64,000 bases of DNA from positions 10,914,001 through 10,978,000 of the forward strand of contig OZ076409.1 in NCBI GenBank assembly GCA_964187785.1, in the 5' to 3' direction. The DNA is from Amphiscolops sp. MND2022. Taxonomy: Eukaryota. The number at the start of each line of letters is the position of its first letter. The stretch's first letter is position 1. Made by a program: the position numbers and the translations under genes. Shown one piece after another: positions 20,701-53,700 of the stretch. Below the pieces are notes generated by a model. It worked only from the letters and a program-made list of their open reading frames with translations. It was not told where the DNA came from and searched no databases.

Positions 20701-23700
20701 CATAGTTGGTGATAATTGATTAGAAGCATTCAACCATGACTTTCTATTCTTGGAACTTTTGGTCGCTAAATTTGAACAGTTAACTAGAAACCATGTTGTA
20801 TCTGAAGTTATTTGCTATCCATTCAAAAATTGTGTACTGATATAAACTTGCTTCGTTGCACCAGCCGAGTTCTACCTTTATGACGACGGATCCATTAACG
20901 CTTCGTGGACCAATGACATTTCGTTTTTCTCGGGCAACTACGACGAAGGTGGTTGGGTCGAATCGGTGCAGCTTCTCATCTACTATGACGTCAACACTAC
21001 CGAACTCATTCTTCCGGACTATGGTGGAGACTTCGTAAGTAAACGTCAAACCAACAAGTTCCTCAATCTTGATGATTTCAAGTCTGCTTTGAAGGTTTCA
21101 ACGAAAGTTTTGACGTGCAAACAAGTCTGACTTTAAATAATACGAAAACTCTAGCTTCAAAATTTTGCTCCTGAGAACGATTTTGCTTAAGCGTTTGCTT
21201 CTGGGATTTTTTGTACAATAACCCATGTTGAGCGCTCCCTGCGAATCTGTACAGATCCTGACAGATCTTGACAGGATTTGTCGAAATTTAACTAGTCGTA
21301 AATAAAAAAGCCGACTTTAAATAAAAAAGAAAACTCTAGCTTCAAAATTTTGCTCCAGAGTTTGCTTCTGGGATATTTTGTACAATAATAGCTCCATTGA
21401 TGATAGGGTACAAAAGGGTAAATACAGTCGACTTGGCCAACGATAACTTTCAAAGCGCGAAGTCTTTTGATGTATTCATCTTACAAAAAAAGTCTCAGGT
21501 GCAAAAGTCACTCAAACTTTGATCAGCAATACAAGGGTATTTTTTGTTTTGAAATCGAAGCAAAATTTAAAATGTTATATCACGTTGTATTTTAAGGATT
21601 TTTGGAACTTTTTGAACGTTAATTAGCAATATCTCAGAAATTACTGGTCGAAAGAGAAACATCCTTAGTTCATTTTTGTAGCCGTGACACCGTTCATAAA
21701 CTTCAAGTTTCATTTTTGACAATATTTCTGAAAATACCTTGTCAAAAAATGATCATCTAAAAACAATCGTAAATTCGTCAAAACAATATTTTTACCGCGT
21801 AAAAATCGAAGATTTCGCATTTTGTGATCATTTTGCGGTGTAAATTTTCAAAACGAGCATTTTCGGGAAAGTGTTAATTTCAAAAGTTCAAGATTTTAAT
21901 CAAAAATACAAAGTTTGTCTCAAATAACTTTTGTTGACTACAACGGTTTTCGAGATATTGTATTAAAAATTTCGAAAAAAAAGTTATCAAAAGTCAAAAA
22001 GTTAGCTGCGAACGTTTGTAGTTTTGTGTGGGTTTAAAACAAAAAAATACACAATAATTCTGATTGAAATTTGGGAAGGTTTTCCACCAATGACATTTGT
22101 GTTTATTGATTATGTACAATTTTATTGCAATTTGAGATTTGAAATCAAGTGTAGTTATTTTTTCGGTACCCTAGAGTACTATGCAATCATCGCTGCTTCA
22201 ATGACTAGGTTTAAGACCTACACGTTTTGGGTCGACCCAGCTTAATTGACTCATCATTTTCAATTGAGGATTAAAAGTCAACGTCCAGCTGTAAGAGAAA
22301 TGCTTCTGAGAAAAGTAACAAATCTCAATGAATGACAGCTGCGATCAAACTGGTTTTGAAATGTCCGTTGACAATCATTTGAGAACACGAAATTGTTTGT
22401 GCGTTCCGTTTTTTTGTTCACCTAGTAGTGTATTGTAGAAACATCTTAATTAATGATCAAGTTCTGATGGAACAGCCTGAAAGCTTTTTCATTAACAGAC
22501 TTTACACTAATCACCCATGAAAAATCACAAACGAAAGATTTTGAAAACTCCCCAGAGCCTATATCCAAAAATACAAAAACCTCAGCTTTTATAACTTTTT
22601 TTCGAAATCCAACAGAGGATGCTTGATAACCCAAACGACGAGTTGCTGCAACTGGAAGTGCAGTACCCGTACCCGTTTGTGGGTGAGGAGTTTGCGTGGA
22701 ACTTGGAGAAGCAGGTCAAGGCATGGAGTGTCTCCCTCTACATATCTTCGCACCAAGACTTCAACGAGATGGCTCTGGCGGTCTTCGTCACTGGCATGGA
22801 AGCCTTTGCCAACTACGAGAGTGTGGAAATTATCCCAGGCAGGAACATCTACCTGCACCCGATGAACAGTTCTTTCTCCTTCACTATAACCGAGGCTGAC
22901 CTTCTCGGAGAAGTAAGACTTCTTTTTATCAAATTTGACAACTCCTGTTTTATATATTTTTAAACGCCCCGCTCGAAGTTCAAAAAAGGGTTAAGTTTTT
23001 TAAATATGCAAAAGGACACTATAATTGAAATTTTATCAAAAATTTCAAGACGAAAAATTTTCCATTTGAAAGATCTCACAATGACGGAAATTGTCGAAGG
23101 GACCCTTTGGGTTTTTTGAAAATCCAGATTGTTTCAAAAAATCAAAAAATGACCCTTCAGTAACGTCCGGTTTTGCAAATGCCTGAAAAAGTTTCGCGGT
23201 GAAGCAGGGACTCGAACCTGCGACCGCTAGATTCCCACTAAACCGATTAACCTCTGTACCAAAAAGTGGTACAAACAGGGTGAGCGAAAACAAAAGAAAC
23301 AAGCCGGGAACGGCCCAAGTCGGCGCCGTATCTAAGGCTCAATAAGACTCGAAAACCACTTTTTCTACAACTGGAGACAACAAAAGCTCTCAAAAAACTA
23401 AAAAATGAGAAAAAAAATTTTCCGAAATTTTTTCGAAATATTTTTGTAGTTTCCGGTATGTCGCATAGTGCCGAAAAATGTAAAAGCGGGACCCTTTGGG
23501 ATTTTTTGAACATCCATTCTGTTGCAAAATATCAAAAATTGATGGGAGGAACAATAAAAAAAATTCGGAAAAAAATCAGTCTCACAGTACCGAAAAAAGG
23601 AGGAAAGTCTCATAGTGTCGAGAAAAGTGGACCCTTCTGCTTTGGAATGGCTTTTTATCTCATGTTAGAGGCTTTGGATGCGTTGAAAATGAAGTACTAA

Positions 23701-26700
23701 GTACATATGGTAAAGTTGGTAAATGTGCAATTGTTACGACATGCTATCGGGTCGTTTTGAGTAGAACTTATTCTCACTGATTTTGTAGGAGTATAGAAAC
23801 CTCTAGTTTCCTCCTCTACCTCTTCTTCAGTGTTTTCTCTAGTAATCCTTCTTGTTTCAGGTTTAAGGAGTTTCAACATCTCCTTCTGAGATTCAATAAG
23901 AAGATTTTTAATCTCTGACGTTATTTCTTCCTTTAATGAAGTTCTCAAGCTTTCAAAGAGACTATTCTCAATCCGGGGGGATTTAGGTCTAGAAGGCCCC
24001 GCTACTTCATCGTCTTGATTCAAAGAACAAGGATTTCCTACTACTATGGGTGAAATCAAGCCTTCACTTACGTTCTCACTGGTGCTTTGCTGATCGTTCC
24101 TTCTTTTTTGGCTTCTTGTTGTTGACATTTTGTAGAAAAGTTTGATCTTGAAGAATTGAATTTCTTTCAAAGATTTTTCTGACAAAGTAGAACAAGGCAA
24201 GAGTGAAATTGAAAATTCAACTGAATTGTACAATTGCAAAAGACTGAGTCCCTCAATCATCAAATCCTATCATATTTATACCCTCCCAGCATCATTTGAT
24301 CACGAACAAAGCCCTAATTTTCCTTGAACAATTAGTCATTTCCTGTATTTTCGATGAAAAAAGCATTTTGTTCCCAATTTTACGTCGACATTTCGTCAAT
24401 TTTTGAGACACGATGATCTTCATTTAGTATTAGTCATCAAATTTGATCATATCATTTCATCTCGGCGTCCTTTTGCTTCCTCCCAAGCAGGAAGTAGATA
24501 TTACTTCAGTCTGTCAAACCGGAAATGCTTCCCTGTTTTACTGCTTTGGTTCGCGGGAAATTGACGCTGAGATGACGCTGACGTGAACAAAAAATACCTG
24601 ATTTTGAATTTCGCTTTGATAAAAATGCTATGACTAATTTCAAAATAGGAACATTTGACCGATGCTAGGACGATATTTTATGAATTTGGACTCAATCCTA
24701 TGCTAGAGATGAGAATGAAATCATGATATGAAAATAATATTTGTTAGCAACTTTGTCATGTCGTGTCAAACACGACAAAATTTACAAAATTAACAGTAAC
24801 GTTTGTTAAATAGCAACATCAACACAACGTAAATAACTGGACAGCAACGGATGTACTAATATAGGAAGACATGATCACAATCACAAGTACAGTGTTCAAC
24901 GTTGTAGAGTACAAAAATGCAAAATATATGAAAAATACATTTCTGGTACACAATATGCTTTTTAGTAGGAGAGAATAAACTGTGACTTCCTCATTAACCT
25001 ACCGCGAAATCTTGTAATAAAATGATTCATGCACTGAAATTTCTTTATTGTTAAGGATACATGATTGTTACTTAACGTGGGGTTGAAATTATCCTATATG
25101 TGCCAAAACGCATTCTAAATTGGGACCTTAAACCATGGAAAATCAGCAATACATTCGTTATACTATTTGCAACAGTCTGCAATTTTCTCTCTTTAGGAAA
25201 TAACGGCATTTGCGCGATGAAAACCTGACTAAATTCAGCAAATTCATTCACTTTATTCAATTTCATAAACTTGTCAACGTCATGTTGACGAGTTTTCTTG
25301 GCAGAGTAGAGATTTTGACTAGTTTGACGCAATGCTGACGAGTATTTTAGAAATGAGTCTCTCGCTAGCTACCGGAGCAGTGACGTCACAATGGCGGTAA
25401 ATTGGAATGATTTCTTGGTACGCTTATGCGAGGCAGTGACGTCAATTGGTATGCCTTCAAACTTGTCTGCGTCTTACTGACGACAAATATACATGTATTC
25501 TTGTTTCTTTCGCCGCTTTGTTTACTCAGCGCAGTATTGACGTCCTAAATCACTTTAATTGCTGTTCAAAAGAGTAATTAAGCTGTCTTTCTAAGAAAAG
25601 GCTTAACTACCACGGTGTGTTGTCTCACTGTAATTTCCTGTTTTAGGTCCGAATGAAATGTAATTTTTCGGGATTAGTTTTGATGTATTTTCATTTAGAT
25701 TAGCTTATGGTCTCTTTATTCTTGGGATAGTTTTATTCTAATTTTCAGGTTGTGAATGTTTCATTTGTCGTGGTTGACTCGTCCAGCCAAACATGCGTGA
25801 AATCATTTTTGGATTATTTTGCTTCCTTATTTCATTTCCGCCCAAATTTGCGCGCGGTAAATGTGTATTTTACATTTCCGGTACTGTTTTATTCAATTTT
25901 GCGAGAGCATGAAAAATTTAGAACGCGTTCACTAGTTTTATTTGGAATTTTTGTTAGGCAAAAGTATTATTGCATTTCAAGTCACAGTTTATTTAAATTT
26001 AGTTAGAGTTCGAGTTAATAACCAAAATACCTCTTCGTGAGTCTTGCGGTGCACCCATGTCCACGCCCAAAACCAACTCTCCTGCATCCGCAATCCAGTC
26101 CGGGAGCGGACTGTGACAGGGCCACTGTCATGGGACGAACGGCTTTACCGGGTTGATAGAAGTCGAACCCCTGGCGCAGGTGATTTTCGTGCGTGTAGTT
26201 TTCCTTGGCTTCGTCTAGCGTTAATTTCGGCTCCTCCAGATCATTTAGAGGACTAGTTGTCAACAGATTTATTCTTCTCAGTGGACCAGGGGGCGTGACA
26301 AAGTATGAAGAGGCGTCTTCTTGCTGCACCTTCTCCAGATATTCGGCTACTTTGCTACTTGTTACTGATTCGGTTTGTACAGCTGGGGCTTCTACTATGA
26401 ATATGTCCGAAGACAAGCTTTCATCAGGGCTTTCCGGGGAGTCAGCAATAACTTCTTCGGTCGACTCAGAGTGGGGGTATTGTCCCGATTCTACAGTTTC
26501 AAAACTAGAGAACGACTCACTCAGCTTCATTTACTTGCATTCTGTTTCTAGTGAATTTACCGATAGGTCGAGGCATTCTTCTTCGTCTGCGTTCGCCTCT
26601 GCTGATGAGTTTAGAATTTCGATGATCAATCCCGGATAGGCCCTGCTGTCACTAGGTATTGGGGTGGACGATCTTGTTATTTCGCCCTCCTCCTCGCTTG

Positions 26701-29700
26701 ATGACGAGATGTCAATTAGTTCGTAGATATCTAACAAGTTGTTCATTCTGCGGCGAAATTTCTTGGCTGCTGTTTTTCGAGTTTGATTGTTTCACAATGA
26801 ATTTCAGGGTTGATTAGGATTAGGGAAATTATTGGAAAAAACCCTTCATTTTGATTGGCTGTTCAATCATTTTAATCCTTTTTAATCTTCAGGTGTTGGC
26901 GATATGTCGACATCGAGTTTTATTGGTTGTTGGTTAAATTAATTTGCTCGGCTGAGCTTGTCAACGTTATGCTGACGTCATTGCGCTAGCTTAGCTAACT
27001 TTGATTTTTGTCACCGTTTTGATGACGTCATTTTAGGATATCGGATTAATTTCTTAACCCAGATAACCTTTTTGTCAACGTTATGCCGACGTCAATTTCG
27101 CTAGCTTAGCTAACTTTTGATTTTGTCACCGTTATGATGACGTCATTTTAGGATATCGGATTAATTTCTTAACCCAGATAACCTTTTTGTCAACGTTATG
27201 CCGACGTCAATTTCGCTAGCTTAGCTAACTTTTGCTTTTGTCACCGTTATGATGACGTCAATTTGGTTGTTGTTTTCAGATTCCTGCTATTTGTGATGAA
27301 TCAAGAAACTCCTCGGTTTCGTCTTGACACCGGCGCTCAGAGCGGCAATGAGACCCAGTTTGTCTTTTCTGAGGGAGACATTTATCCGAGTGATGCGGAC
27401 GTTGTTCGTCGGCCTGCAACAGGTGAGTTTGTTGTTCCCCATTCCTTTAAGCTTTCCGTGAATTAATGCTATTTACAGATTGGCCTTTTTCTGTTTGCAT
27501 CTTTCACAGCTTAGATTTTCTGACGCGTCGTTATGGGATGTTTATTTGTTGCCAGAACCGACGTTTTCTTCTCCTTTGGCTGGGGCTTCCAACACTGCGC
27601 TCAAAGCTTCTCTTCCTGGTGATCTCTCTGGAGTTTCTCTTGTGCCTCTTGCTGATTCGACGCACCATGCTACTGATTCTCCAGTTGATGTTCCTGCTCC
27701 TGCCTCTCCCGATTTGCATGGCTCTAGTGATTCTGACGTTCCCTTGGCTGACATCATCAAGGTTGCTGCTCCCACTGTTGTTGCGGTCGCTCACGAAGGT
27801 GAGGGGGCTCCCCCCCTCTCAGAGAGGGAGCAGGGAGTAGCCATACTACTATTTCTCCGCGGTTTTCGTCATTCTTGGTACAAGAAGTAGCATCCGGCGG
27901 AGCTGAAGCAGTGTCGTCGAAGAATAAACGTGGTGAGTTGGTCTGTTGATGACTTTTAAATCTTTATGTGTGTACGTGCGAGTGAGAGAGAAAGGAAAAA
28001 ATGAAGGGAATTGTATCGTTGTGGTTGTCTCAGCTGATGCGAGGAAGTTTCTTTCTGTTTTAGTGCAGCTTATTGTCCCTGAGGGTGGTGGGACTGATGA
28101 CCAGTCGGCTTCGAAGTCTTCTTTGAAGGATAGGACGGGTTATGCTGTACCGACTGTGCGATTCAGTTTGTTGGACGCAGACGAGACGTGTGAGGTGGTT
28201 ACTGCGTTGCCTGGCATGTCTGTGCAATCTGGTGAGGTGTTGAGGGCTGGCATTTCAGATGCAGAGAATCACACGTTGGACCCTTTCGTTGCTCGTGAGT
28301 ATATTCTTGTATTTGGTGTATCAACTAATTGGAGCGATTCGTCTTTTCTGTTTGTTTCCACAGTTTTGTCTCGTGGTGCTTAGTTATGTGATAGTTGGTT
28401 TATTGCAGGTTTTGAAGAATTGATCAATCGGATGGAGACGACCTTGGAAAGTGCTGATCGCAGTCGGAAACGTGTGTATAGCCCGAAATCATCTTCGACG
28501 GGATATGGTCGTTGGAAATCCCATCTATGAGCTTTTCGTTAGCGGCTCAAGTACTGGCTCCAGCAAGCTGTTTCACTGCACGATTTGTCAGCGGGACGTC
28601 TCCATGGAGTCGCGGGGTGCTGCCGAGTTTAGTCGGCACTTTTTTGGGAAACGTCACTGGCAACTCGATGTCACTTATCGTGTGCAGAATGGTTTGCCGG
28701 TATACAATCGCCTCATGGATCCCATGGTTCTAAGTGATGCACAGTTGGAAGAGTACCGCAATCGTCCTAGTAAAGGAAAAGATGAGGGATTCAGTTTCCC
28801 CGAAGATTTGCTTCCTGCTTGTGTTCAGCCAGATTCGAGCGTGCCCCTCATGACGATGGTTAATTGCTTGATCGAACTGTTGCGATTTGGTGGTAGTTAT
28901 ACCCTTTTGCGGAAGTTGTGGGGATGTTTCCGTGCAACTCTTGGACCCGAGAACCCTCTGTACAGCATACAGTGGAGCCGACCGGAGTCATTGGTTGGTA
29001 TTTTTGTTTTGGTTTTGATTCAGATGGGGGTTTGTTCCTCTTTTTTTTCTTTTGCTGTTTTTTCCTTTCTTTTCCCCTTTTTTTTTGTTTAAATATAGTG
29101 GGCATTCGTCGTTATGTTTTAGTCGTTGATCTGTGGAGCCCTCTTCCCTCGAGTGTTGCGCGCTCTCGTTGCTCGGATTAGTGCCTTTCGAGAATACAGT
29201 GTCTTCTTTGCGGAGGTGGATGGTTTGCACAAGTGCTTTGTTCAAACTTTTGATGACCACACGTTGATGAGCGTCTGTGTGAGGGTGGAGTCAGTTGGGC
29301 AACGTGTTCCTGAAGCTGAGTTAGCTGGACTATCTCGCGTTATTGATAGTACTGCCTCATGTCAGATGCCGTTGTCCTGTCATGGTGGTAGTCCGACCTT
29401 GTTGCGGGTTTTCAGCGATACTCGAGTGGATGGACGTGAGTTCCTCATGTATCGGGAGTTCGACGCTGAAGTATTTTTGTATTGCTTCCGACTTGCTCAT
29501 CAGGAAGTGTTCGGTGGCCTAGAGACTACGACGATGGTCGATTATCTCATGCTTCGGTTGCGAGGTGCTCTGCAGGAGTCCTGGTGTGAGAGTGTGCCTA
29601 ACCTTCGTCGCTGCATCGTTGCTGGCCGTGTCGACTTCGTAGATTTGCAAGCTGTCGTTACTGACTTGATTGCCGTGTGGTCCTCGGTGCAGGATTTTGT

Positions 29701-32700
29701 CAGACACACTGGTCCTCGACATTTCAAGACTGGAGCTGGCCGAGTAAGAAATTCTTTGTCTTTCTTTTCTTTTTTTTTCTCATAGTCGGGATTTTCCATG
29801 TAGTCTTCATTGCTCATGTGATTGTGAACGGGTCTTTAGTAGTGTTGGCTGTATGTTGCAGATGCGTGGCACTGATTGGCATGTCTACTCTGAGTCTTCT
29901 GGCGAATTGCGTCTGGGCCTGCTCTTGCATATCCTCGAACTCCGTGAGCATGATTCTGGTGTCTAGTTTTCTTGGGTTTTCATGTAGCGTGTTTGTTATG
30001 TGTTATTTTCTTTGTGCACGGAGTGGGTGGGGGAAACACTGTTGTTTTTTTGAGGCTTCGAGCGAGCGAAGCGAAGCGACGAAGTCTCTATTGTTCCGCG
30101 TTTACTAGCGTTTTGGTTTTTTTTTCGCGTGACATACCCTCTGCATTTGTATTAATTGAAGGCTATTTTCTCAGAGCCTATTTTTCCGCGACCATCCAAA
30201 CTTTCCAAAAAGAAACGCAACTTGATGCTCTTTCTAACCGTGTAAAAACTCTCCGAAAATTTTCCACCGGCGCGATTTTATTAGCTTCGAAAGCGCGAAA
30301 TTTTCGAAAATTTTTAGGGTTTTTGTCGATTTTGCTATTTTTCTTTTCGCAAACCACAGCGAATTGGCCCGATGTAGGTACTAACCGACCTAAAACGATG
30401 TTTTCTTTAATTTGGTGAAAGTTTTTTTATCCTAGAATTATTGGGCTTTGCGAAAATGACCATTAAAAATAGGAAAAATTTTCGGTTTTTTTGCGTAAAA
30501 ATTTTCTCAACCTATTTTCAAGTAGCAATCAGTTCTAATCCAAGCAGTGGTGTTTCTACTCGATAACAGGTCTGCTTAGCTGCCCAAAGTTAGAAATTGG
30601 AAAGTCACAACGTTTACGTCGGACAGATGGAGACAAAAAAGTTTTCAAATTTTTTGAATTTTTGATAAATTGCTCTCTTTATTCAATTTTGTAAAAGTTT
30701 TGGCCTATTTTCTCGGAGCCTAATACTTCGAGACCATCCAAAAACTCAACAAATTGTTGGATCTGAATTTGTTGGTGAAGATTTAAATGTTGTTGGATTT
30801 TCGGGCAGTTCATTGTATATTATACAAATTGTGCTTTACTACGAATCTTGAAATAAATGAATATTTGATCCTTCAATTTTTAAATATACATTTTCCAAAC
30901 TAATCTTAGGAAGGAGTGAAATAGACGAAGTTACCGGATCGGTCTTGTAAAAATGCATAGATTGCGGTATGATTACCCCTAGTAACCCTCCTACTGTCTT
31001 ATTTGCACGGCTGTTGTTAAAAATGCTGACTTCATCCTTGGAAGGTTTTTATTTATTTATACTGCTAGTAGAAAATGTAAAAATGCTCGAAGACCTATCG
31101 GCAATGTACATTGAATCATATACTCCATAATTGCTCATTGATTTGCTTTGTCTCATGCCTGTAAAATTTTCGGTGAATAGTTTTTTTGTCCATTTTTGAT
31201 GTCGGAAACCAAAGTTTTTTTCAGACCTCTCGATGTATGGGTTTTCGAGAGTGAGATCATATTGGACCACTGGAGTACATACTCACCGTTAGTTATTGAT
31301 GATGTGGTTGTTTGAAGCGTAAAACCGCGAAATTTCCGTTCTTAACGTATTCTATCCAGTGAATATCTGCACAGAAGGTATTATGCATTACCGCAATATT
31401 CCTGAGAGATTTGATGTCATATGCAACGATTAAATCAAGACAACACTAAGTTATATTCACACCTCGCTGTGCAATGATATTCAACTACGTTGTATTGAAA
31501 ACAAAAATGACTTCGGATCTTTCCGTGATTTTGCCCCATTCGCAAATTTTAACAGGTTATTCATCCTCTGGAATACGTTTCCAACGGTGCCCACTGATGC
31601 TGGAAGGTTGTTTGATGCACAATTCAGCTAATTTTTAGAACTGAAAGTATACTTGCTAGTGATGGCACATATCAACCGTCCTATTGATAACTAGGGCAGC
31701 CCTTCCTTTTATATAGTGGTAAAGGCCGAAAAAGTTAAGCTTCATAGGATTAATACCCGCAATTCTTTTCAATTTCATTGTATTCTGAGCATTCTCGTAC
31801 CGTATATAACCTTAGCTATTCGTCATAGCTAATAACTTGGTAATATGGTTCAAATGCACATGATGATAGTCAATTATGGCTGCGGGACCTGTCGCTCGAA
31901 GCCGTGCGCAAATTCCTTTGCGCCTATGTTTTTTTTTCTCCATGTTGGTTATTGGTCGGTATATTGTGTTTCAGACTCGTGTTCGTTCAAGAAACAGTTG
32001 GCTTGTCGCCCTGACTACGGGTTTCATGGTTATATGGAAGTTTGCCAATTTGTCTACTGTTTGTTGTCGCGCAGTCGCAAGCTCGGTTCTCTTCCCAGTC
32101 TGGATGCATGCGAGGAGTATATGGACCCGTCAAAACTGAAAGCTTATGAGAATGTTGCTGCTGCCGATTTTCTGTGTAACCATGAGTTTGGCGCTGTTCT
32201 TCGTCGTCATAAAAGTGGAGAATCTCAAGTTTTCCGGGGCCTCTGTGGCAAATTCATGGATCGTCTTGTCACTGTCATTTTGTCGCAGCAGTCTGTTACT
32301 GGAGATCTTCCGCAAGGTATTTACTCATTCTGTCCGGAGTTGCTACTGGAGGGGGATGACCATCATATGTTATTGTTGTTTCGCAAGTTGATCCGTGTGT
32401 TAGAGCGGAGTGGGGTCAAATCTGCATTGGAGTCAAAGTCAGCTACCGAAGAATATTCGACGTTTGTTGTTGATGCTCGAGCGCGACACGTCAGTAGTGA
32501 AGGGATTGCTGAGGCTATCCAAGATGTTCGCCATCATCTGCTATCCGATTACAGTTTTTTGGCTCGCAAGTCATTGTGTCGAGTGTTCAAACTGTGCTGT
32601 TTGGTTGTCTCAAAGCCTCGGATGACATTTCCAGCAGTAGACTTAGATCGCAGTGGTTGCGCAGTTCCTGAACTTGTTGTCACGACGTGTATTCAGGGCG

Positions 32701-35700
32701 TTCAGAGTTGTGTTGTGTCTTCGGAGTTCAAGCTGGGGTCATTTTTTACAAAGTTTACAATTGGTCAAGTTCGGAAGTCAATTGTCAGTGCTAGTTCCTT
32801 TATGTTATGCTCTGATTTTGACCCTTGGGACGGCTTGTGTAGTGGTGGTCAGTCTGCGTTTGTTGGTCGTTATCGTCGTCTATTCAATGACCGTATCAGT
32901 CGCAAAAGGAGCAACAGTTGTGAATCACCCTGTGATGTGGGTGATCCTGGTCACAGTGTGGAAAGTGGTGGTGAAGGTGGATGTTTCTCACAATCGGAAA
33001 GTCCGGCAGCTTCATCTGTTTCCGCACCCCCATGCTCTTCGTCGGGGGGATCTAGTTCTTTTCGCCCTAGTAAGACGAAGGTGTACGGAAGTATTGCCTC
33101 ATTGCTTGGTCGTAAGAAGAGTGTTGAGGGGACTGGAGAACATGCATCAAAGAAGAGTAAGAAGAAGTCGGGGCAGTCTTCGAGTAAGGGAATTGCTGGG
33201 GGTTCAGAGAGAAAATGAGTTTTCTTTATCTTTGTGTACGCTGTAGTATGAATTGTAGTTGTTGTTTTATTTCTTTGTTGTTATCCTTTGCAATATATTA
33301 TTGAATACAAACTGAAGTATGACATTTTGAGTGATAAAAGGAAAAATACATTTATTCAGGTCGTAGTATGCCTGTAAATTGAAAATTGTCAGGTCGGTTC
33401 GGCCTGGACTCCTGAATTTATCTTTTCATTTTTTAGTGAGTCGTAGTCATTGCGTCAAGTCGTCTAAAGTCAGGGTCAGCATTAGGTTTAGGATTAGGTC
33501 GTAGATTATATTTCGCTGTTTTTCTCGGATTATATCCAACGACTGTAGGCGGAGATTTTGGGGGAATAGGTGGACTTTGAATGGGTGGGGGGCGACGTAT
33601 ATATGGGTTATCCCCTACGTCTGTAGTGAGATTCGAAAAGTCCGGTGACGGCGGTATCATTTCATCTGTATTGTCAGTTAATTTTTGTGGCATCGTGTTG
33701 TCGTCTGTATTTGTCACCTCTTGTATTTCTGTTCTTTGTCCAGTCTCCGTATTTTTTGATGTGTCGAGTTCGTCGATTTGTTTTCCGAAATCCATTTCCC
33801 ACGAGACTGCATACCATTCATTGTGTGATACTTTAACGTCTGGATCCGGTAGGTATTCGTTTGACCGTACTGTGACGTCGGGTATGCGTTGATCTGTCAC
33901 ATAAGGTCGTATTCTGATTCGATGCAGTGTTTGTGTATATCTCGTGCCAATCTTTCGTATTGTGTAGTTATTATTGGAAAGCACTTTGATCACTATGTAC
34001 GGTCCTGTCCAAATGCAATCTTGAAACGCAAACTTTGTCGATTGATTGTCGGCTTTCGGATTGAGTATATAGCAATAGTCGTTGATTTTTAGTGGGGCGG
34101 CTGATGCCTTGCGATCATAGTATTTTTTGTATTTGAGGTAGGATAGCATGATGTTGTCCTTTGCTGTCGCTCGTACCTCGTCTATTTGTTTTTGGATTTG
34201 CTCCGCTATGTCCGAATTGGGTGTTGTTTTCCATTTTGGTTTGATTCCCAGTTTTAGGTCAAGGACATTGTAGGGTATTCGTCCGTGGAATACTGTAGAT
34301 GGTTCGCAGCCCAGAGTCTCATGGTATGTTGTATTGTTGTTCATTACGGCTATTTGGACGTATTTATGCCACATCGAACGTCTTTCGCCCGTGGAAATTT
34401 TTAGTGCAGTTTTGATTGACGCATGTGTTCTTTCCAAAATTCCGATCGTTTGTGCATGTTTCGTGGACGCGTGGCTGATTTGGATCTCGAGTATCTGGGC
34501 TATTTCTGTAACGACTTCTGATCGAAATTGTGAGCCTTTGTCTGATAAGATTAATGTTGGCAAGTATGCGTGTCTTGTCATGACGTCGACAATACATCGT
34601 CCGATTGTTTTCGCTGTGACATTCTGCGTTGGGTATGCAAATCGGTAACGTGAAAATACGTCGATCATCGTAACGATGTTCTGGTATCCCACAGAGTTTG
34701 GCAAATTTGGTAATATGTCAATTTCAAGAATGTCCTCCGGGCCGAGGACGTGTTCTGTATTGTTGATCATTTTTGGTCTGATTTGGCTATTGTTAATCCG
34801 TTTGTATTTGATACAGTCTTCACATTGCATTACCCATTGTCTGATTCTTTTTGCTAGACCGGGGTAATAGTACTTTGATCGGCATTCTTGAATCATTTTT
34901 GTAATTCCTGGGTGTTTTCGCATTTGTCCATGTATTGTTTTCAGAAGTTCTGTAACCAAGTGTTCAGGGATTAGTATTTGGTGGTGGGTGACTTGGCCAC
35001 ATTCGCCGTAATATTTGCGCATTAATATTCCGTCTTTGACAATTAGTCTGTTTTCGTGGATGAGGAGACGTTTTGCTGTCGGATCAGTTTGTAAGAGATG
35101 TTTGTCATATTCTTCACAAATCAATTTCTTTTTGAGTGCTTTGAAAACTAGGTTTGAATCTTGTTCGGCTCTGATGCGCGCGTCTTCTTTTATTGCCCCG
35201 AAGGTGTAGGAAGCTTTGTTTATTGGGATTGGGTTAGTTTCTTTGATAGCTAGTTTAAGTTTTGTCGTCTCTTCGTCGCGCGCATTTTGTCTTGCTTGAT
35301 CTTTCTGCAGGAGTATATCTTCTTCGGTTTCAATATTTTCATCTGGAAGAAAGAAAAGTTGTTCTTCATCTGCGACGTCAGTAGACTGTAGGTTTACTTG
35401 GATTGGGCGAATTGTGATGTCCTCTCTGATTTTTAATTCGACTCTCTCCTTGGGGTTGAGATCAATTCTCGATAGGAAATCAGCTGCTGTATTCTGTGTA
35501 CCAGCCACGTGCATTATGTGGAAATTGAATTGTAGTACATAATCGCACGCGTTCCACAAGGTAGGCGGTATGGCTTTTGTTTGGAAAAACCGCGTTACTG
35601 ATCTGTTGTCTGTCATCACTAAGGTCGGTAGAGTTGTTTCCCACAGGATATGGCTGTATTCTAGGAAGGCGTGGTATATTGCTAAAAATTCCTTGCAATA

Positions 35701-38700
35701 AATTGACATTTTTAGCTGTGCTGGAGAGAATACTTTCGATCCGAATGCGACTGGCGCAAATGTCTTCTTTTTTGAATTGAGTTTTTTGTCGTTGTCTTCT
35801 TCGATCATCAACGCATAGCCCGAGGCTCGGAAACTGGCGTCCGTCATTAGGATGTATTGTCGTCCTGTGATTGGTTGTTTGAGAGCCAATCCACAGGCTT
35901 GCGCCAATGCTGCGTTGATCGCTTTGTAGTGATCGAGTAGTTCTTCTGTGACCTTGATTTGCTTGTCTGCTTTCAATAGTTCGTAAAATCCGAGCAGTTT
36001 TTCGGACAATCGCGGGATGTAGTTGCGATAATAGTTGACAAAACCAATGTACCTCTGTACTTGCTTCTTTGATTTTGGAAATCTCACATTGGCTAAAAAT
36101 TTCTGTATCTTGTGGTCTTGGGGGGCGATCCCTTGTGGGGTGATCGTCCTTCCAAGGAATTCGACTTCAGTCATTTCAAAATGGCATTTGTCAATGGATA
36201 GTTTGAGTCCTGCTTGTCTGATGCATTCGAAGACGGCTCGGATGTTTCGTATCAGCTGCGTCACGGAGTTGGCGGCTATGCCGATGTCGTCCACATATTG
36301 TGCACATTGGTCAGCTTTGATTACTTTATCCAAATATTCCCTCATGAAACTTGAAAATGCCGATAATGCTCTGCTTAGTCCTTGTGCCAGCCATTTGTAT
36401 GCGAAGGTTCTGCTTGCAAAGTTGAATGCTAGCATCTCGATGGATCGTTGGTCTGCCATTTGTAGACAGTGGTATGCTTGGGAGCAATCTAATTTGCAGA
36501 ACAACTTTTTCCCAGCTAAGTGTTGGGCTGCGTCCGACAGGGTGCTGACTGGGTGGTTGTTGGTGATGTAATCGTCTGAAATTAGTGCGTTTATTTTTCG
36601 TAGGTCGACGAGTAGACGCAGTTTGCCATTTGGCTTCCTTTGTGCGAAAATTGGACTTGCATATTTCGAGAATGGTAGGGTCGTTATTATGCCGTACCTA
36701 TGCATTAGTGCTAATTCGACTGTTAGATCCTCTTTCAGGTTAATTGGTACCGGCAAGCTTTGTGTGTAAATTGGACGCTCGTCTTTCGGAGTTAATTTGA
36801 CTTTGAAGCTATTATTGATTCCGATGTCAAGGCGATGTCGGGCAAAGATATCGTTGTATTCGACTATTGTTTGCTCGAGTTGCTTCCTGTCATTGCCTTC
36901 GATTTGAGAACCTTCCCACTGGAACATGTCCAGGAAATGCTTTCGTGATTCTGGATCTTTGGTTGGGTCTAGTTTTTCTTTTTGAATGAGTTCACGGATT
37001 TCTATCAGTATCCTTCGTTGAATTGGTGTATGTTCTTCTTCGTTTCTTGGGTTCTCGGGTGTGGGGAACCAGAAATTTTCACCGTTTTGTTCATTTTCGC
37101 TGGATTTCATGAGTTCATTCACATACATATGTGTGTCATCTGGATCTTGTAGAGTGGTTAGCGTTGCGACGTCTATGGGTCGTATCTGTTTGGTGTCTTC
37201 TGGCCGCAGGATTTGCAATTCTGCCAATTTGGTGTGATTTTTTAAGGTGTGAGGGAAATCTGTCAAGTTGGCTATTCGTAAGTTGATTCGTTTGTTGTGA
37301 GCTGTGGCTAGTGCTGGTGCGATGATGATGGTTGCTGTTTCGTCAAACTGTGGTAGCGGTTGTACTGCTCCTGTGATGTCAATTGCATTAGTAGTTATGA
37401 CTATTGCGTTTACGGTTGTTGTTTGTTGTGGAGGCAGTGTCTGGTTCCCTTCAGTCATGATTTGGAGTGGTTTGGGGTTACAGTTTTTCTTTTCATCTGT
37501 CATGGCTAATGTCATTTCGACATGGGGGAAGGTGATGGTCCCATTGGCTGTATCTATCACTGCTTGGTGATTCCTCATGAAGTTCAGTCCTATTATTGGG
37601 AAGGACGTTTTTGAGAGTATCACGAAGGTGTCCGTGAAGGTATACGTTCCTATGTTGAATTGTATATCGGCTGTGGCTATTGGTTGCTCCAGTTGAGCAT
37701 TTGCGCATTCGATTTTGAAAGGAGGTTGTGGATACTCTTTTATGACACAGTTGTCGCTGTTCATTTTGATTGCATTGTAGTCCGACCAGGACATGGCATT
37801 GATGAACGCACCTGAGTCGACAAGTCCATCCATTGTTATTTCGCCAAATTCTAGTGGCAAGTACAGCATTCTCCTCCTGCTCTTGAGGACTATAGTCGAG
37901 TGGAGAGGTAAGTACGTCTCTCCGTCTTTTTCAGTAACATACTCTTTAATAGAGTTGAGAGATGCGGGGAAATCTTCTGGGAAGATAGGTACTTGGGTGG
38001 AGCCGTGAGTATCTTCCTTTGTTAGTGGTGACGGTGGTTGGTCTTCATGGGCGTTTTCAGTTTGTTCTATTTGGGTTGCGGTGGATTGTGTTGTGTTGGT
38101 GGGGGATGGCTGTATGAGATTTGGGTGTTGTTTATGGTCGTCTCCATGGTCCTCATCTGGTGTTTGCTCTTTTTCGGTTTGTATGAGGGGTCTTCGTATG
38201 GAGGCAAGTGCCTGAGGTCTCAGCCAGTCCTCTGTTGGAGTTCCATCGCATTCTATTGTTTTATCTTTTGTGTAAGTCGTAGGGGGATCGTTCGTTAAAT
38301 ACGCCCTCGCGTCTACTGTTTCCCCGAAGCGCAGGCGCGGCGTAATTAGTTTTTTGAATCAGTGACAGCGTTGGCCTTCGTTTGCTGGACGGGAACGTCC
38401 TTTTTTGATTCTGGATTGTTGTGACGCTTAGGTCGTGGATCATTGGCAGAGTTGTCTCCGTACCAACAATCTTCCGTTTTGTGGGGTTTGCCACATGTTT
38501 CGCATTTGAGCGGTTTGCCTGCACTAGAGTTAGTTTGACTATTGTTTTTTCTGGTTTGCATCCATTTATCTCTCTTCATTTTTCTGCATTCTGCCTTATA
38601 GTGTCCAAATTTGTTGCAGTAGAAGCAATATCCTTTTTTGACATTTTGCGTTGTGTTGTCGACTTGTTTGGGCTCAGTTTTTGCTGGGGCTGGTTCTACC

Positions 38701-41700
38701 TTGTTTAGCGGTACTAAGGTTACCTCATCCGGCGCTCCTAAGCCGTTAAGTCTCATTTCGCGTTCTAGGTGGAGTACTATATCATTATAGGGTTTATCCT
38801 CGAGGTATGCCCTGTTTAGTATTTTCTTGACGTGGTCTGGCATCTTTGCATAGATCGCCTTATCAATAAATTGTTGGGCTTCAGAGCCAAAAGCTTCCTT
38901 GGCAGTTTTTTGAAGTATGTCCAGAAATTCGTGGAGTTTCTGGTTCGAGGGGTCGAATTTGAGCGCGTCCCATTCGCATCTTGCCTTGGCCATAGACAAA
39001 TAGTCTCCAAAACGTCGTTTGAAAATCGTCATGATCTCATCAAGGGAATCCTTTTTCGTATCTTCGATATTACAAAATGCTTGTAAGGCATCTCCCCTGA
39101 GGAGGGAGTGGAAATAGTTTATTTTTTGGATTTCAGTAAGGTGCGGGTACATTTTTATGTTATTCCGGAAAAGGTCTTCGAATAGTTCAAATTTTTCCGA
39201 CTTCCCGTCGAAGGTCGGGAGTGACGCCGTGAGTGCTTTTGGCATGGGCAGAGTAGTGCTATCGTTTTTATCCGTTGCAAATAAAGTTCTTGCCGCTACT
39301 GGACGTTCTTTTGACGGCGGCTGGCTCTGAGACCTGGCTTTTGTTCTTTTTGGCTGGTTTGTGGAATCGGTTAGGACTCCTGTCACCATGTTACGACATG
39401 CTATCGGGTCGTTTTGAGTAGAACTTATTCTCACTGATTTTGTAGGAGTATAGAAACCTCTAGTTTCTTCCTCTACCTCTTCTTCAGTGTTTTCTCTAGT
39501 AATCCTTCTTGTTTCAGGTTTAAGGAGTTTCAACATCTCCTTCTGAGATTCAATAAGAAGATTTTTAATCTCTGACGTTATTTCTTCCTTTAATGAAGTT
39601 CTCAAGCTTTCAAAGAGACTATTCTCAATCCGGGGGGATTTAGGTCTAGAAGGCCCCGCTACTTCATCGTCTTGATTCAAAGAACAAGGATTTCCTACTA
39701 CTATGGGTGAAATCAAGCCTTCACTTACGTTCTCACTGGTGCTTTGCTGATCGTTCCTTCTTTTTTGGCTTCTTGTTGTTGACATTTTGTAGAAAAGTTT
39801 GATCTTGAAGAATTGAATTTCTTTCAAAGATTTTTCTGACAAAGTAGAACAAGGCAAGAGTGAAATTGAAAATTCAACTGAATTGTACAATTGCAAAAGA
39901 CTGAGTCCCTCAATCATCAAATCCTATCATATTTATACCCTCCCAGCATCATTTGATCACGAACAAAGCCCTAATTTTCCTTGAACAATTAGTCATTTCC
40001 TGTATTTTCGATGAAAAAATCATTTTGTTCCCAATTTTACGTCGACATTTCGTCAATTTTTGAGACACGATGATCTTCATTTAGTATTAGTCATCAAATT
40101 TGATCATATCATTTCATCTCGGCGTCCTTTTGCTTCCTCCCAAGCAGGAAGTAGATATTACTTCAGTCTGTCAAACCGGAAATGCTTCCCTGTTTTACTG
40201 CTTTGGTTCGCGGGAAATTGACGCTGAGATGACGCTGACGTGAACAAAAAATACCTGATTTTGAATTTCGCTTTGATAAAAATGCTATGACTAATTTCAA
40301 AATAGGAATATTTGACCGATGCTAGGACGATATTTTATGAATTTGGACTCAATCCTATGCTAGAGATGAGAATGAAATCATGATATGAAAATAATATTTG
40401 TTAGCAACTTTGTCATGTCGTGTCAAACACGACAAAATTTACAAAATTAACAGTAACGTTTGTTAAATAGAAACATCAACACAACGTAAATAACTGGACA
40501 GCAACGGATGTACTAATATAGGAAGACATGATCACAATCACAAGTACAGTGTTCAACGTTGTAGAGTACAAAAATGCAAAATATATGAAAAATACATTTC
40601 TGGTACACAATATGCTTTTTAGTAGGAGAGAATAAACTGTGACTTCCTCATTAACCTACCGCGAAATCTTGTAATAAAATGATTCATGCACTGAAATTTC
40701 TTTATTGTTAAGGATACATGATTGTTACTTAACGTGGGGTTGAAATTATCCTATATGTGCCAAAACGCATTCTAAATTGGGACCTTAAACCATGGAAAAT
40801 CAGCAATACATTCGTTATACTATTTGCAACAGTCTGCAATTTTCTCTCTTTAGGAAATAACGGCATTTGCGCGATGAAAACCTGACTAAATTCAGCAAAT
40901 TCATTCACTTTATTCAATTTCATAAACTTGTCAACGTCATGTTGACGAGTTTTCTTGGCAGAGTAGAGATTTTGACTAGTTTGACGCAATGCTGACGAGT
41001 ATTTTAGAAATGAGTCTCTCGCTAGCTACCGGAGCAGTGACGTCACAATGGCGGTAAATTGGAATGATTTCTTGGTACGCTTATGCGAGGCAGTGACGTC
41101 AATTGGTATGCCTTCAAACTTGTCTGCGTCTTACTGACGACAAATATACATGTATTCTTGTTTCTTTCGCCGCTTTGTTTACTCAGCGCAGTATTGACGT
41201 CCTAAATCACTTTAATTGCTGTTCAAAAGAGTAATTAAGCTGTCTTTCTAAGAAAAGGCTTAACTACCACGGTGTGTTGTCTCACTGTAATTTCCTGTTT
41301 TAGGTCCGAATGAAATGTAATTTTTCGGGATTAGTTTTGATGTATTTTCATTTAGATTAGCTTATGGTCTCTTTATTCTTGGGATAGTTTTATTCTAATT
41401 TTCAGGTTGTGAATGTTTCATTTGTCGTGGTTGACTCGTCCAGCCAAACATGCGTGAAATCATTTTTGGATTATTTTGCTTCCTTATTTCATTTCCGCCC
41501 AAATTTGCGCGCGGTAAATGTGTTTTTTACATTTCCGGTACTATTTTATTCAATTTTGCGAGAGCATGAAAAATTTAGAACGCGTTCACTAGTTTTATTT
41601 GGAATTTTTGTTAGGCAAAAGTATTATTGCATTTCAAGTCACAGTTTATTTAAATTTAGTTAGAGTTCGAGTTAATAACCAAAATTCCTCTTCGTGAGTC

Positions 41701-50700: not shown

Positions 50701-53700
50701 CGATCCAGTACCTGGAAAAAGTATCTATTCGGTTGTTCATTTCTACAAAGAGGGCAGAATAACTCGCGAACGACTTACAACCATGTCAGGAGAAGCAGAA
50801 AGATATTTGGTTGAAGGTTAGTCAGTTAACATCTGCTTACATTCACTAGTTTCATCAAATCCCACAGGTAACAGGAAGCAAAGTGACTTCTCAATGGATT
50901 TTACTTCCAAAGTTTGTGAAAGCTTGTTTAACCTTAAGTTGGCCAGGAAAAATCTTGTTCCATTGGCTCCGAACTTTGCGCCAAAACTTTGCACGCGTCG
51001 TGTCTCTTCTTGCTTTTCAGCATGTTTCAAAACATGCTGGGGCCGCTTTGACCCAATGTTGATACCAGTGGGATAAAAGGGGCACAAACGAAAACTGGGA
51101 AAACGGAAAATCTGCACTTATTTTTCTTTTGATTTTTTCGCCTCATTTTCTGGATTTTGGAGACATCACGTCAATTTTCCGTGAAAAGGCGCCGAATGCT
51201 ATGCAATATTGTCTGAAACTCTTATTAAAGGGTTTGCTTTACCATACAATCAGCTGGTGCGTTAAGAATTTGCAGAAACTAAATGCGCCAAATTTGGCAC
51301 ATTGGCCAAGTTAAGGTTAAGACTATCAAAAAATGACTTGATGAAGAATTGAGTTTTACCCGTACTGAGATTCCATGACTAGATTTTTATAGCTACGAGT
51401 GGTCCATGGCAGTTCCATTTCTGGACAAACCTGGATTAGCCCTGACCTGGCAAAGAAATCCAAATTTGAAAGCCCAAGAACTAACTACGCTTACTCTGAA
51501 CTGATCTATGGATCACCCTGACCATGGATTGAATTGAAAAGAACGACTAGTAATTCAATTCCATCCCTGTCAATGGATGAAAAACCAACCATCATTACGA
51601 TACTTATGCCGCAACGAACTAACAAGATCTTGCTAGTCCTTGTTATACGGTTCATCCGTCAATCAAGTAACTGACCTTTACCGAACTTCGGTTATAGACA
51701 TACCTGTCTACTGTTTACAAACACTAGATGTAAAACTCCTACGTCACTTTATGTTAATGTGATATAGCATACGCTTGAGTATAAAGAGATATTATTTTAG
51801 AAAACCTTATTCTTTTCTTAGAACTAGTTCGAAAAACTTTAATCAAGATTTCAAAACAAACTGAAAATTTTAATCGGAACCATGGCAAAAAAAATATCGT
51901 ACCGAACCTAGAAGCAAAGGCATCGGACGGGAATCCAATCTTTACTCCGAAACAATGGTTGGAGAGATTCCGACAGTTTTCTAAACGGGAACACAAGAAC
52001 GATATCACACCGCTAGTAAAAGGAGAAGATATCACAGGAACCGGATGGACTGCCGAAAAAGAAGCAAACATTCAAGAACACTTTATCTGGTGAGTGGGAC
52101 CGGAAGCGCTATACCAGATAACCCGAGCCGACTAGAAAACGGAACCGGACAGCATCAAAATTCAAGACCTAATCCGGGTATATAACGAACACTACCTCCC
52201 AAAACGAAATATATAACACAACAGTGGAGATTTCTTTTTGGCAAAACAATCGGAAAATGAAACACTCGAAGAATTCTGCAGACGTTTAATCGAGATCAAA
52301 AAAGAATGTAATTTCGGTACCATCTCAGCCGAAGAACTATTAATATCCAAATACATGACCGCGATCACCGACAAGAAGTTACGGGACAAACAAATGAAAA
52401 AAAAGCATTAGAGATGAAAAAATTATCGAAATGATCCAACAAAATACCTACGAAAAAAAAACAAGAAAAACACAAAACCAGAAACCTCACTAACAACGAA
52501 AGAAAAACAAATAATCAAAGACGAACCAATATAGATGAATGGAAAAATTCTGAACCAGACCGAAAACAGAAATAACAGGGAACCGACCATGCAGATTCTG
52601 CAATGCACCAAATTGGAGCCCAAAACATAAGTGTCCAGCACAAGAATCAAACTGCAATAACTGTGGAAAAAAAGGACACTACGCAGGGGCATGCAAACAA
52701 AGAACAAAAAATAACCGAACAGTGAGAAAACTTACCGAAGAGGAAGAAACAGAGTCGAACGAATCGATGAGCGAACCTGATGAGAGCATATACCACATAG
52801 AAGAAATAAAAAACATTGTGGAACAACAGAAACACTACAGAGCAAAAATAAAAATCAACGGGACACCAAAAGAATTCATCATCGATACCGGATCTCCAGT
52901 AACCATAATGCCATTATATGAACAAATAATGAACAAAACCGAAATTCAGAAAAAACGGAACCGATATCAAGATGTAAATAAAAATGAAGTAAAATTCCGG
53001 GGGAAGAAACCGGTAGACATGGAATACGAAAAACAAAAGATGGAAATACTAATCACCGAAAAAACGGACATAACACCGCTATTAGACATGGACTGGATGA
53101 AAAATTCAAATTGACAATCGGAAAAATACAATTAGCCGAAATCAACCAATTGGAAAAAGAGAAAGTTATCAACAAGTTTCCGGACCTGTTGGAGAACAAC
53201 CGGACAATAAAAGATACTGAAATGAATAAACAATTGAAACCCGGACACTACCCGGTGAAACAAAAAGCCAGACCAATCCCGCTACACCTACAAGAAGATG
53301 TAGGACGAGAACTTGAAAAAGTAATAAAAGCCGGACACTTAGAGAAAGTAAATAATGTGTTTGAAGACTCCTTCGTATCACCGGTAGTAATAACGGTAAA
53401 GAATGACAAATCAGTGAAAATAGCACTGGATTCCCGAAAACTAAATGACAGTTGTATTAAACGGAGACCACAGATGCCAAAAATGGAACAATTGTTAAAT
53501 CAGATGTCGGTGGAAGTTACACGGGACCGAACAATTCAACTAGTAAGTTCTTGAATCGATTTAGATTACGCATACGGATAATTGAAAATATCTGAAGAAG
53601 CAAGCCGACAATGCGTATTTGCAATTACCGGAGCAAACTTTAGCGGATACTATAAATTTAAAAAAGGGTTTTACGGACTCGCCGACATCCCCACAATCTT

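Follow-up and report, generated by a model that had tools for sequence, protein, structure and literature searches.

A predicted seven-exon antisense gene is a conserved accessory gene of an animal LTR retrotransposon family

Introduction

Long terminal repeat (LTR) retrotransposons of the plant Ty3/gypsy Tat/Retand type carry long regions between pol and the LTR that hold tandem repeats and, in nearly all copies, antisense open reading frames (ORFs), according to the parts of two studies that deal with them (PMC7264820, PMC11963269); the examples given in the same parts are gene23 of maize Grande, rice RIRE2, Silene Retand and the TRP28-encoding ORFs of the Retand lineage. To go by the title of a paper cited in PMC8220671 and in the relevant part of PMC11963269, the antisense gene of Grande is driven by a promoter of its own and its product is a nuclear protein. 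Outside plants, brtn is an additional antisense gene of the Boty-like (BcGypsy1) elements of Botrytis cinerea, likewise of the Ty3/gypsy group (Zhao et al. 2011, Virology 417:248, as cited in sections of PMC7264820 and PMC8365987), and HBZ of human T-cell leukaemia virus type 1 (HTLV-1) and APH-2 of HTLV-2 are antisense nuclear regulatory proteins of deltaretroviruses (PMC11963269, in the part concerned with viruses). Here we analyse a 64,000-nucleotide stretch of the genome of the animal Amphiscolops sp. MND2022 (GenBank assembly GCA_964187785.1, contig OZ076409.1, positions 10,914,001 to 10,978,000 of the forward strand), hereafter the window, in which a Ty3/gypsy-type LTR retrotransposon carries, on the strand opposite to gag and pol, a predicted intron-containing gene that is conserved throughout the element family.

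One HBZ messenger RNA (mRNA) is spliced, and the HBZ and APH-2 proteins interact with CREB-type factors. Antisense introns are also the basis of retrotransposition reporters of the his3AI/neoAI type, in which removal of the intron from the element RNA marks the new copy. Penelope-like and other retroelements reportedly retain introns, as Arkhipova and colleagues are said to have described in 2003 (cited in PMC6431247); in the Penelope-like elements these introns stand in sense orientation, within the element's own ORF region.

Results

The host element occupies window positions 23732–41776 on the minus strand and measures 18,045 bp, or about 16.2 kb without an insertion private to this copy. 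Between its pol gene and its 3′ LTR lies a plus-strand gene of seven exons and six GT–AG introns, the frame of which closes at 33218 and is disturbed only between two lesions. Exon 1 (27296–27422, 127 nt) opens with an ATG conserved in all subfamilies shown and ends at a GT donor; exon 2 (27556–27932, 377 nt, 378 in nine other copies) includes a low-complexity segment with a variable C-run; exon 3 runs from 28064 to 28294 (231 nt); exon 4 (28409–28993, 585 nt against 587 in 19 of the 20 other copies) specifies a basic cluster along with a zinc finger; exon 5 (29123–29743) has 621 nt, as it does in 18 of 20 other copies; exon 6 (29862–29943) has 82 nt; and exon 7 (31975–33218, 1244 nt, 414 codons including the stop) encodes an all-alpha domain that is modelled with confidence, followed by a disordered tail. 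The gene's stop ends at 33218 and faces the pol stop codon at 33433–33435 (minus strand) across a spacer of 214 bp (33219–33432), which holds poly(A)-signal-like hexamers on both strands and is 60–68% conserved between subfamilies.

An earlier note on this DNA had drawn the same seven exons and six introns, as well as the convergence on pol; all of these are present, and the intron phases that it gave (1,1,1,0,0,1) are correct. Comparison with diverged copies nevertheless moved two of its boundaries. The exon 3 acceptor, which it had put at 28033/28034, gives way to a conserved AG preceding 28064 (28063/28064), an in-frame shift of 30 nt that makes intron 2 131 nt long and not 101, and the exon 6 donor, which it had put at 29958/29959, gives way to a conserved GTGAGT/GTAAGT at 29943/29944, an in-frame shift of 15 nt. 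The more diverged version of the gene found in two copies described below (L032 and L033) has AG and GT at exactly the revised boundaries and an exon 6 of 82 nt. By coordinate arithmetic, the stretch between exons 5 and 7 in a database homolog, P0103, likewise suits an 82-nt exon 6 better than one of 97 nt.

A second donor-like site inside exon 2 (27798/27799, GAAG/GTGAGG) is conserved and in phase, and its use would give an exon 2 of 243 nt. The part of the exon upstream of this site is 243, 246 or 249 nt long in 21 of 21 copies; the part downstream has an in-frame length in only nine of the 21 and is open in all five in-frame representatives (5/5). Long and short forms of exon 2 are both possible on this pattern, with predicted products of 1089 residues for the long form and 1044 residues with the internal donor.

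Gene and element are inherited together, and the element has carried the gene to many chromosomes. We compared the window with 20 other copies, taken as 10 kb each from 10 chromosomes, with three diverged copies and with L032 and L033, which makes 25 copies examined in full detail out of possibly thousands. Collinearity with the window extends, in all 20 copies first fetched, from the inner boundary of the 3′ LTR into pol, and in two of the three diverged copies exons 4–7 converge on pol, the third being truncated past the start of exon 7. The convergent layout is found altogether in 24 of the 25 other copies, from several subfamilies, with the truncated copy as the sole exception. Genome-wide, the 131 best pol-tail matches and the 150 best exon 4 matches form 78 convergent pairs and, among the matches listed, no same-strand pair; spacing is 2910–3192 bp in 77 of the 78, and 4958 bp in the window's own pair owing to its private insertion. 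Of 6856 first-look exon 4 candidates, the best 150 all span the full length of the exon with a protein identity of 77% or more, and 139 of these 150 contain no stop codon. Splice sites lie at homologous positions in every subfamily and cassette type examined, even where protein identity is about 50%.

Exons and introns differ sharply in how they have changed. Between subfamilies, exons 4, 5 and 6 are 71–82% identical with almost no insertions or deletions (indels), and exon 7 is 66–77% identical with some gaps, mostly near its end; introns 2–6 are 43–72% identical, each with tens of gap positions. Ratios of nonsynonymous to synonymous divergence (dN/dS) were estimated by the Nei–Gojobori method, the pol tail being run on the same pairs with the same script. 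They are 0.015–0.2 for exon 4, 0.04–0.13 for exon 5 in nearly all pairs (0.47 in one pair with 5 differences), 0–0.11 for exon 6 and mostly 0.04–0.24 for exon 7 (up to 0.40 in near-identical pairs), compared with 0.02–0.11 for the pol tail (0.32 in one near-identical pair); exon 3 gives 0.25–0.6. Synonymous sites are saturated between subfamilies, and purifying selection is visible even in copies 5–10% apart at such sites; selection between recent copies implies that the transposing lineages have retained the protein. For exons 4–7, the strength of purifying selection is of the order seen in pol. The comparison with other copies that the earlier note had called for gave, for exons 4–7, conservation with few or no indels and dN/dS below 1, the introns being far less alignable; its reading of a stable accessory gene, as opposed to a one-off host capture, is supported by the identical position and orientation of the gene in 24 of 25 other copies, together with selection about as strong as on pol.

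Within the window's own family, pairs such as L009 and L018 show a synonymous divergence of 0.21–0.26 in the pol tail against 0.05–0.12 in the antisense exons, two to four times higher in pol; recombination or a strand-specific mutation bias are possible sources of this excess.

The gene is also occasionally exchanged as a cassette between element lineages. About twenty pol tails 95–99% identical to that of the window lacked an exon 4 partner in the listed matches, and the two that were fetched, L032 and L033, both carry the gene. Relative to the window they show 97–98% protein identity in the pol tail and 90–93% DNA identity on the ORF3/LTR side; protein identity within the gene is 73% in exon 4, 58–60% in exon 5, 59% in exon 6 and 50–51% in exon 7, with all splice sites kept. 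Similarity falls between 27264 and 27338 and resumes between about 33218 and 33366, just around the gene. It is because near-identical pol tails bear gene versions 50–73% identical in protein that we regard the gene as moving as a module. L022 is a second mosaic with the same pattern and a different left boundary. Trees of the pol tail and of exon 7 have the main clades and the fine structure of the window's family in common and place the mosaics differently; in approximately unbiased (AU) tests each data set rejects the grouping of the other, with p 0.00016 for the exon 7 grouping on the pol data and p 0.02 for the pol grouping on exon 7, and one more case is not significant (p 0.12). Such deep divergence, with versions swapped between backbones that are nearly identical, would suggest a changing partner as the source of pressure, for example host defence.

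The exons are predicted to encode one protein of about 1045–1090 residues. P0103 is a single ORF of 890 residues on a 4-kb contig and is collinear with exon 4 (residues 31–250), exon 5 (255–452) and exon 7 (498–839); its junction between the first two is seamless, the end of exon 4 falling at residue 249 and the start of exon 5 at 250. In a 35-row alignment of exon 4, conservation ends at the end of the exon and the next codon reads as Val (GTN) in at least 90% of rows, as follows from translation of the GT of the conserved donor. Public protein collections hold 383 relatives of exon 7 at E ≤ 0.001, 220 of them at E ≤ 1e-10, together with 170 relatives of exon 4 and 90 of exon 5; none of ten relatives looked up in European Nucleotide Archive (ENA) records has a protein name. 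A search with exon 5 among longer proteins returned no match, and a scan of metagenome contigs with the exon 4 profile gave 70 pattern matches, of which 0 were confirmed.

The finger of exon 4 follows the pattern C-x2-C-x16-H-x5-H, with C57, C60, H77 and H83 invariant in at least 90% of the 35 rows and with a conserved Phe before it and Trp after it. BED-type fingers have the signature Cx2C...Hx3-5H/C with flanking aromatic residues, and the motif is C2H2/BED-like in its sequence; on the finger Pfam reported nothing above threshold, only Sgf11 at E 0.069. Given an alignment of relatives of exons 4 and 5, AlphaFold models the finger region of P0103 as a small hairpin plus helix at a predicted local distance difference test score (pLDDT) of about 90, and the remainder as helical at low confidence (mean pLDDT 52). 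A model of exon 7 from 60 relatives (mean pLDDT 76.8) shows an all-alpha domain with pLDDT above 90 at residues 10–210 and a C-terminal tail that is disordered, basic and Ser/Lys-rich.

The protein is an orphan, with no known family or fold convincingly matched. Pfam gave nothing above threshold in all exons, P0103 and 61 exon 7 relatives; PDB sequence profiles searched from alignments A4 and A2 gave nothing meaningful; Foldseek found no match at E ≤ 0.001 for either model against PDB or for the exon 7 model against BFVD; and a wide search with VIA-align reached a best Z of 4.9 for the exon 7 model and of 7.5 for the P0103 model, the latter in its low-confidence helical part only. Two further alignments, A1 and A3, which assembled the whole protein from exon-sized database ORFs, were discarded, unrelated pieces having been stacked together; A2, made of exon 4 and 5 pieces with bridging ORFs, was usable.

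Two candidate assignments were not borne out. A string resembling the hAT dimerisation region ('CERVFS', about 29830) falls within intron 5 and has no counterpart in other subfamilies, and Pfam did not detect a hAT C-terminal dimerisation domain either in P0103 (E ≤ 1) or in the translated exons (E ≤ 0.01 or 1). Apart from the small hairpin of the finger both models are helical, residues 230–400 of the P0103 model being of low confidence. In the fold search the Hermes insertion domain reaches Z 4.3 with a root-mean-square deviation (rmsd) of 5.0 over 146 aligned residues, at rank 46, and the hAT-derived families that a language model offered as look-alikes of P0103 (0.79–0.82) were backed by no other tool. 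The same holds for RhoGAP as a look-alike of exon 7 (0.89–0.92, 126–152 of 256 features): PF00620 matches 0 of 61 family members at E ≤ 10, and there is no RhoGAP chain among the fold matches listed.

The element has a further sense ORF, ORF3 (26018–26791, minus strand, about 258 residues), which stops about 100 bp inside the 3′ LTR and encodes an acidic, Ser-rich product with a conserved C-terminal Cys/His motif. It is split by an in-frame stop (26531–26533) in the window copy and open (243–264 residues) in 14 of the 20 other copies, across all subfamilies, with dN/dS of 0.10–0.16 in six computable pairs (0.85 in one near-identical pair with 4 differences). ORF3, which the earlier note had mentioned, is real and conserved across subfamilies, and is a second accessory gene of the family. 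A subgenomic spliced RNA is one conceivable route to its expression. ORF3 does not fit a retroviral or errantiviral env: it has no Pfam family and no hydrophobic segment (maximum Kyte–Doolittle 19-residue average 0.65), and its roughly 258 residues lack a transmembrane segment, whereas env would be a membrane-spanning glycoprotein several hundred residues long.

A tandem repeat of 115-bp units (26958–27264, 2.7 units by Tandem Repeats Finder (TRF)) lies immediately ahead of the antisense ATG. The palindrome TGACGTCA, which resembles a cyclic AMP response element (CRE), occurs 12 times in the window against 0.9 expected by chance; four copies at 26973–27260, three inside the tandem repeat and one just before it, are all upstream of the antisense ATG, and each LTR holds two (25381–25444 and 41038–41101). 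From this distribution, sense and antisense promoters may share a factor. The region 27150–27295 is 80–86% conserved between subfamilies. Intron 1 (27423–27555) and the region upstream are 78–88% identical between subfamilies, compared with 50–87% for exons 1–3, a degree of conservation that suggests a cis-acting element; the consensus fold of intron 1 has modest z-scores (−2.5 on the plus strand, −3.3 on the minus strand).

The window copy is damaged, as the earlier note had said, and both of its lesions are present, though they are not the two single-base shifts that it described. The C-run near 27811 has 7 C in place of the 8 found in nine in-frame copies (5 to 12 C among 21 copies), and exon 4 lacks 2 bases that are present in 20 of 20 other copies, the deletion falling after 28483 and not at about 28525. 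The run at 27799–27830, a G-run followed by the variable C-run, stands directly behind the conserved in-phase GTGAGG of exon 2 and may reflect faulty assembly of the homopolymer, a genuine frameshift or use of an alternative donor; an out-of-frame C-run length is common to many copies of one sub-clade. The large insertion that the earlier note placed within intron 6 is real (30052–31926, 1.9 kb) and private to this copy, all 20 other copies going straight from about 30051 to about 31927. It is flanked by repeated TGTTTTTTT (a duplication of 8–9 bp), its ends are short inverted sequences with a hairpin-like palindrome close to one of them, and on these features it looks like a non-autonomous DNA transposon.

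The LTRs of the host element (3′ LTR, 23732–26119; 5′ LTR, 39389–41776; both minus strand) are 2388 bp each and 99.7% identical by self-BLAST of the window, so the insertion is young. The 3′ LTR has TG...CA ends if its outermost base is assigned to the target-site duplication, which reads CAAT or GCAAT at both element ends, and the bases adjoining the inner end of the 5′ LTR start with TGG, a candidate primer-binding site; no clear purine run that could be a polypurine tract precedes the 3′ LTR. An empty-site paralog at 12279–12845 is 95% identical to the element flanks and uninterrupted exactly at the insertion point. The element landed inside another repeat (23298–23729 plus 41776–41918), an intact second copy of which lies 11 kb upstream.

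The pol ORF (33433–38358, minus strand, 1641 residues) has five Pfam domains above their cut-offs, namely RVT_1 (residues 574–739), RT_RNaseH and RT_RNaseH_2 (805–939), Integrase_H2C2 (1130–1186) and rve (1207–1299), which give the order reverse transcriptase, gypsy-type RNase H, integrase zinc-binding domain and integrase core; for an aspartic protease, Pfam reported no family in the 570 pol residues ahead of the reverse transcriptase. The gag-like ORF (38346–39923, minus strand, 525 codons), whose stop-to-stop frame enters the 5′ LTR, matches DUF1759 (E 1.8e-9) and, weakly and under the cut-off, Retrotrans_gag. DUF1759 is more usual in Bel/Pao elements. The element is Ty3/gypsy-type by its pol, its exact clade being left unsettled by the DUF1759 gag and the undetected protease. 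Past the pol stop, two canonical AATAAA signals (33266–33271 and 33351–33356, minus strand) lie within the spacer common to pol and the converging antisense gene, and full-length genomic RNA would need to read through them.

Elsewhere in the window, 51636–56977 is another retroelement-like region with a strong AT skew of opposite sign, in which direct repeats of 1.6 kb (51808–53419 and 54939–56552, 99.7% identical) each contain a retroviral-type aspartic protease-like frame. Across the window as a whole, neither Rfam nor a tRNA scan gave a match. The host genome (1.07 Gb) is that of an animal by its gene content also, with at least 146 matches to rhodopsin-type receptors and 0 to chlorophyll a/b-binding proteins.

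Discussion

The observations are, in our judgement, very probably explained by a spliced antisense accessory gene that is carried by the whole element family and exchanged between its lineages as a cassette, with an internal promoter and a nuclear helper role that we infer. On the genomic sense RNA the six introns read CT...AC, and by established knowledge their reverse complement is invisible to the spliceosome; they stay in the replication template, and reverse transcription copies them into each new insertion, as their occurrence at homologous sites in all copies and cassette types examined bears out. Splicing is possible only on a separate antisense transcript, and the gene needs such a transcript of its own. 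This could start at an internal promoter in the 115-bp repeats with their TGACGTCA palindromes and end in the 214-bp spacer before pol. The product may be a nuclear nucleic-acid-binding factor that aids the element, whether by controlling its transcription or the handling of its RNA or by countering host silencing, a role suggested by the probable nucleic-acid-binding finger, by basic clusters resembling nuclear-localisation signals and by analogy with other antisense genes. A more far-reaching version, which we hold to be somewhat unlikely, would make the family a complex, retrovirus-like animal lineage equipped with gag, pol, ORF3 and the spliced antisense gene, the product of the latter being a counter-defence or specificity factor in an arms race, for example with host silencing by small RNAs or chromatin, its deeply diverged versions shuffled by recombination among near-identical elements in the manner of retroviral env, and the gene family representing a new and widespread class of accessory protein with its own fold.

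LTR elements do capture host sequences, as part of PMC7264820 recounts, and the protein has no transposon-type domain, so that one might think of a host gene captured or transduced by this copy, or of an element that came to lie beside a host gene. The same gene occurs, however, in the same place in 24 of 25 other copies on many chromosomes and in 78 convergent pairs; it sits inside the LTR pair, has 6856 first-look exon 4 candidates and, in the main family, yields a tree that follows that of pol, all of which makes such a capture highly improbable. It is scarcely credible that the long plus-strand frames are a by-product of skewed base composition: AT and GC skew are indeed strong throughout 26–40 kb, the plus strand being T- and G-rich, and its A content of 18–20% slightly lowers the frequency of stops, but stops are still estimated at about 1 per 20 codons, near uniform, which is insufficient for frames of 195–414 codons, and composition leaves unexplained the indel-free exons beside indel-rich introns, the conserved GT/AG sites, dN/dS of 0.02–0.2 and the 383 relatives of exon 7.

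Selection also bears on whether the gene is a passenger without a role, left over from a nested mobile element such as a zinc-finger DNA transposon. The weak hAT-derived look-alikes of P0103 (0.79–0.82), the BED-like spacing of the finger and the modular movement between backbones would fit such an origin; selection on exons 4–7 as strong as on pol, even between recent copies, would be unexpected of a sequence that survives by retrotransposition only. There is, moreover, no Pfam transposase domain, the all-alpha models lack an RNase H-like sheet (the middle being modelled at low confidence) and 'CERVFS' is intronic and not conserved; we regard the passenger as unlikely. An antisense unit acting mainly as RNA, through small-RNA or double-stranded-RNA control with the protein secondary, would agree with the proposal, made in a part of PMC7264820, that antisense transcription of retroelements is itself a regulator, and with the higher DNA conservation of intron 1 and the upstream region than of exons 1–3. 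It would not predict synonymous saturation with dN of 0.05–0.2 or exon lengths that fit the phases, for which a protein-coding role is required, and we think it very unlikely as the main role, though an RNA role may exist alongside that of the protein.

Several points nonetheless weigh against a spliced accessory gene encoding a nuclear helper. Exons 1–3 are weakly constrained (dN/dS 0.25–1.0) and specify a low-complexity product; doubt attaches both to the predicted N-terminal part and to where exon 2 truly ends. Only 3 of the 21 copies keep the long form of the chain open throughout, and 8 of 21 do so if exon 2 ends at the internal donor, which implies that most copies are damaged or mis-assembled at the homopolymer. 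Splicing, promoter and polyadenylation site are predictions from sequence, and the plus strand has no canonical AATAAA or ATTAAA up to about 680 bp past the antisense stop, the spacer holding variant hexamers only. The two lists behind the convergent pairs are the best of thousands of candidates each, and their 53 unpaired pol matches are uninformative, not negative; the groups entered into the AU tests were chosen with the trees already in view. The middle of the protein is modelled at low confidence only, through a distant homolog, and the proposed function draws on the finger motif, basic clusters and analogy, with null results from the Pfam, PDB and fold searches.

Animal LTR retrotransposons are usually drawn as gag–pol with or without env, and the present family adds two conserved accessory genes; complex gene sets with antisense regulators would then not be confined to deltaretroviruses or to plant and fungal elements. 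The family is also a natural, genome-scale demonstration that antisense introns pass through reverse transcription, and selection of pol strength combined with cassette exchange makes the gene a candidate factor at the host–element interface. Its exons, present in hundreds to thousands of copies, are easily mis-annotated as host genes, a risk that follows from the 6856 first-look exon 4 candidates (139 of the best 150 without a stop) and from 383 unnamed cluster representatives of exon 7, and a named family would clean such annotations.

The earlier note had not recognised this design from standard clades, and in this it overstated the novelty, since plant Ty3/gypsy lineages are known to carry antisense genes in this same interval, accompanied by tandem repeats, and a fungal element has brtn; the part that stands is that neither such a gene in an animal element nor one with six introns was found described. 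Searches of open-access full text yielded no report of an antisense gene with introns in an animal LTR retrotransposon, an absence that does not prove that none has been published, and no antisense retroelement gene with six introns or of such size; nor did these searches, together with the parts consulted of a rotifer LTR study (PMC5408684) and of a review of giant transposons (PMC6431247), yield an additional antisense gene of any kind in an animal LTR element.

The plant elements resemble the present one in their long region between pol and the 3′ LTR, an antisense gene in most copies that has no counterpart beyond the elements, tandem repeats, and a product suspected of acting as a regulator in the nucleus or by binding DNA. 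Their genes, however, are described as plain ORFs, introns being mentioned in neither PMC7264820 nor PMC11963269, and their products have TRP28 or other domains, whereas the present gene has an animal host, six introns, a product of about 1045–1090 residues that belongs to no Pfam family and a sense ORF3 following it. Boty-like elements share an extra antisense gene within a Ty3/gypsy element and differ in their fungal host. Deltaretroviruses too place a nuclear regulator opposite gag–pol–env, and their CREB link parallels the CRE-like palindromes seen here, as an analogy only; they are exogenous mammalian viruses in which the antisense transcript starts in the 3′ LTR, has at most one intron and encodes a small bZIP protein, unlike the candidate internal promoter, six introns and large unrelated protein of the present gene. 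As in his3AI/neoAI-type reporters, an intron is placed antisense to one transcript and the mRNA of the opposite-strand gene can be spliced, with the difference that the introns here are natural, conserved and would never be removed from the template. Penelope-like elements also keep spliceosomal introns in their genomic copies and belong to a different element class. The layout of the present element is thus familiar; what is new is its animal host, an antisense gene that is rich in introns, encodes an orphan protein family and is exchanged as a cassette, and the presence of ORF3 as a second accessory gene.

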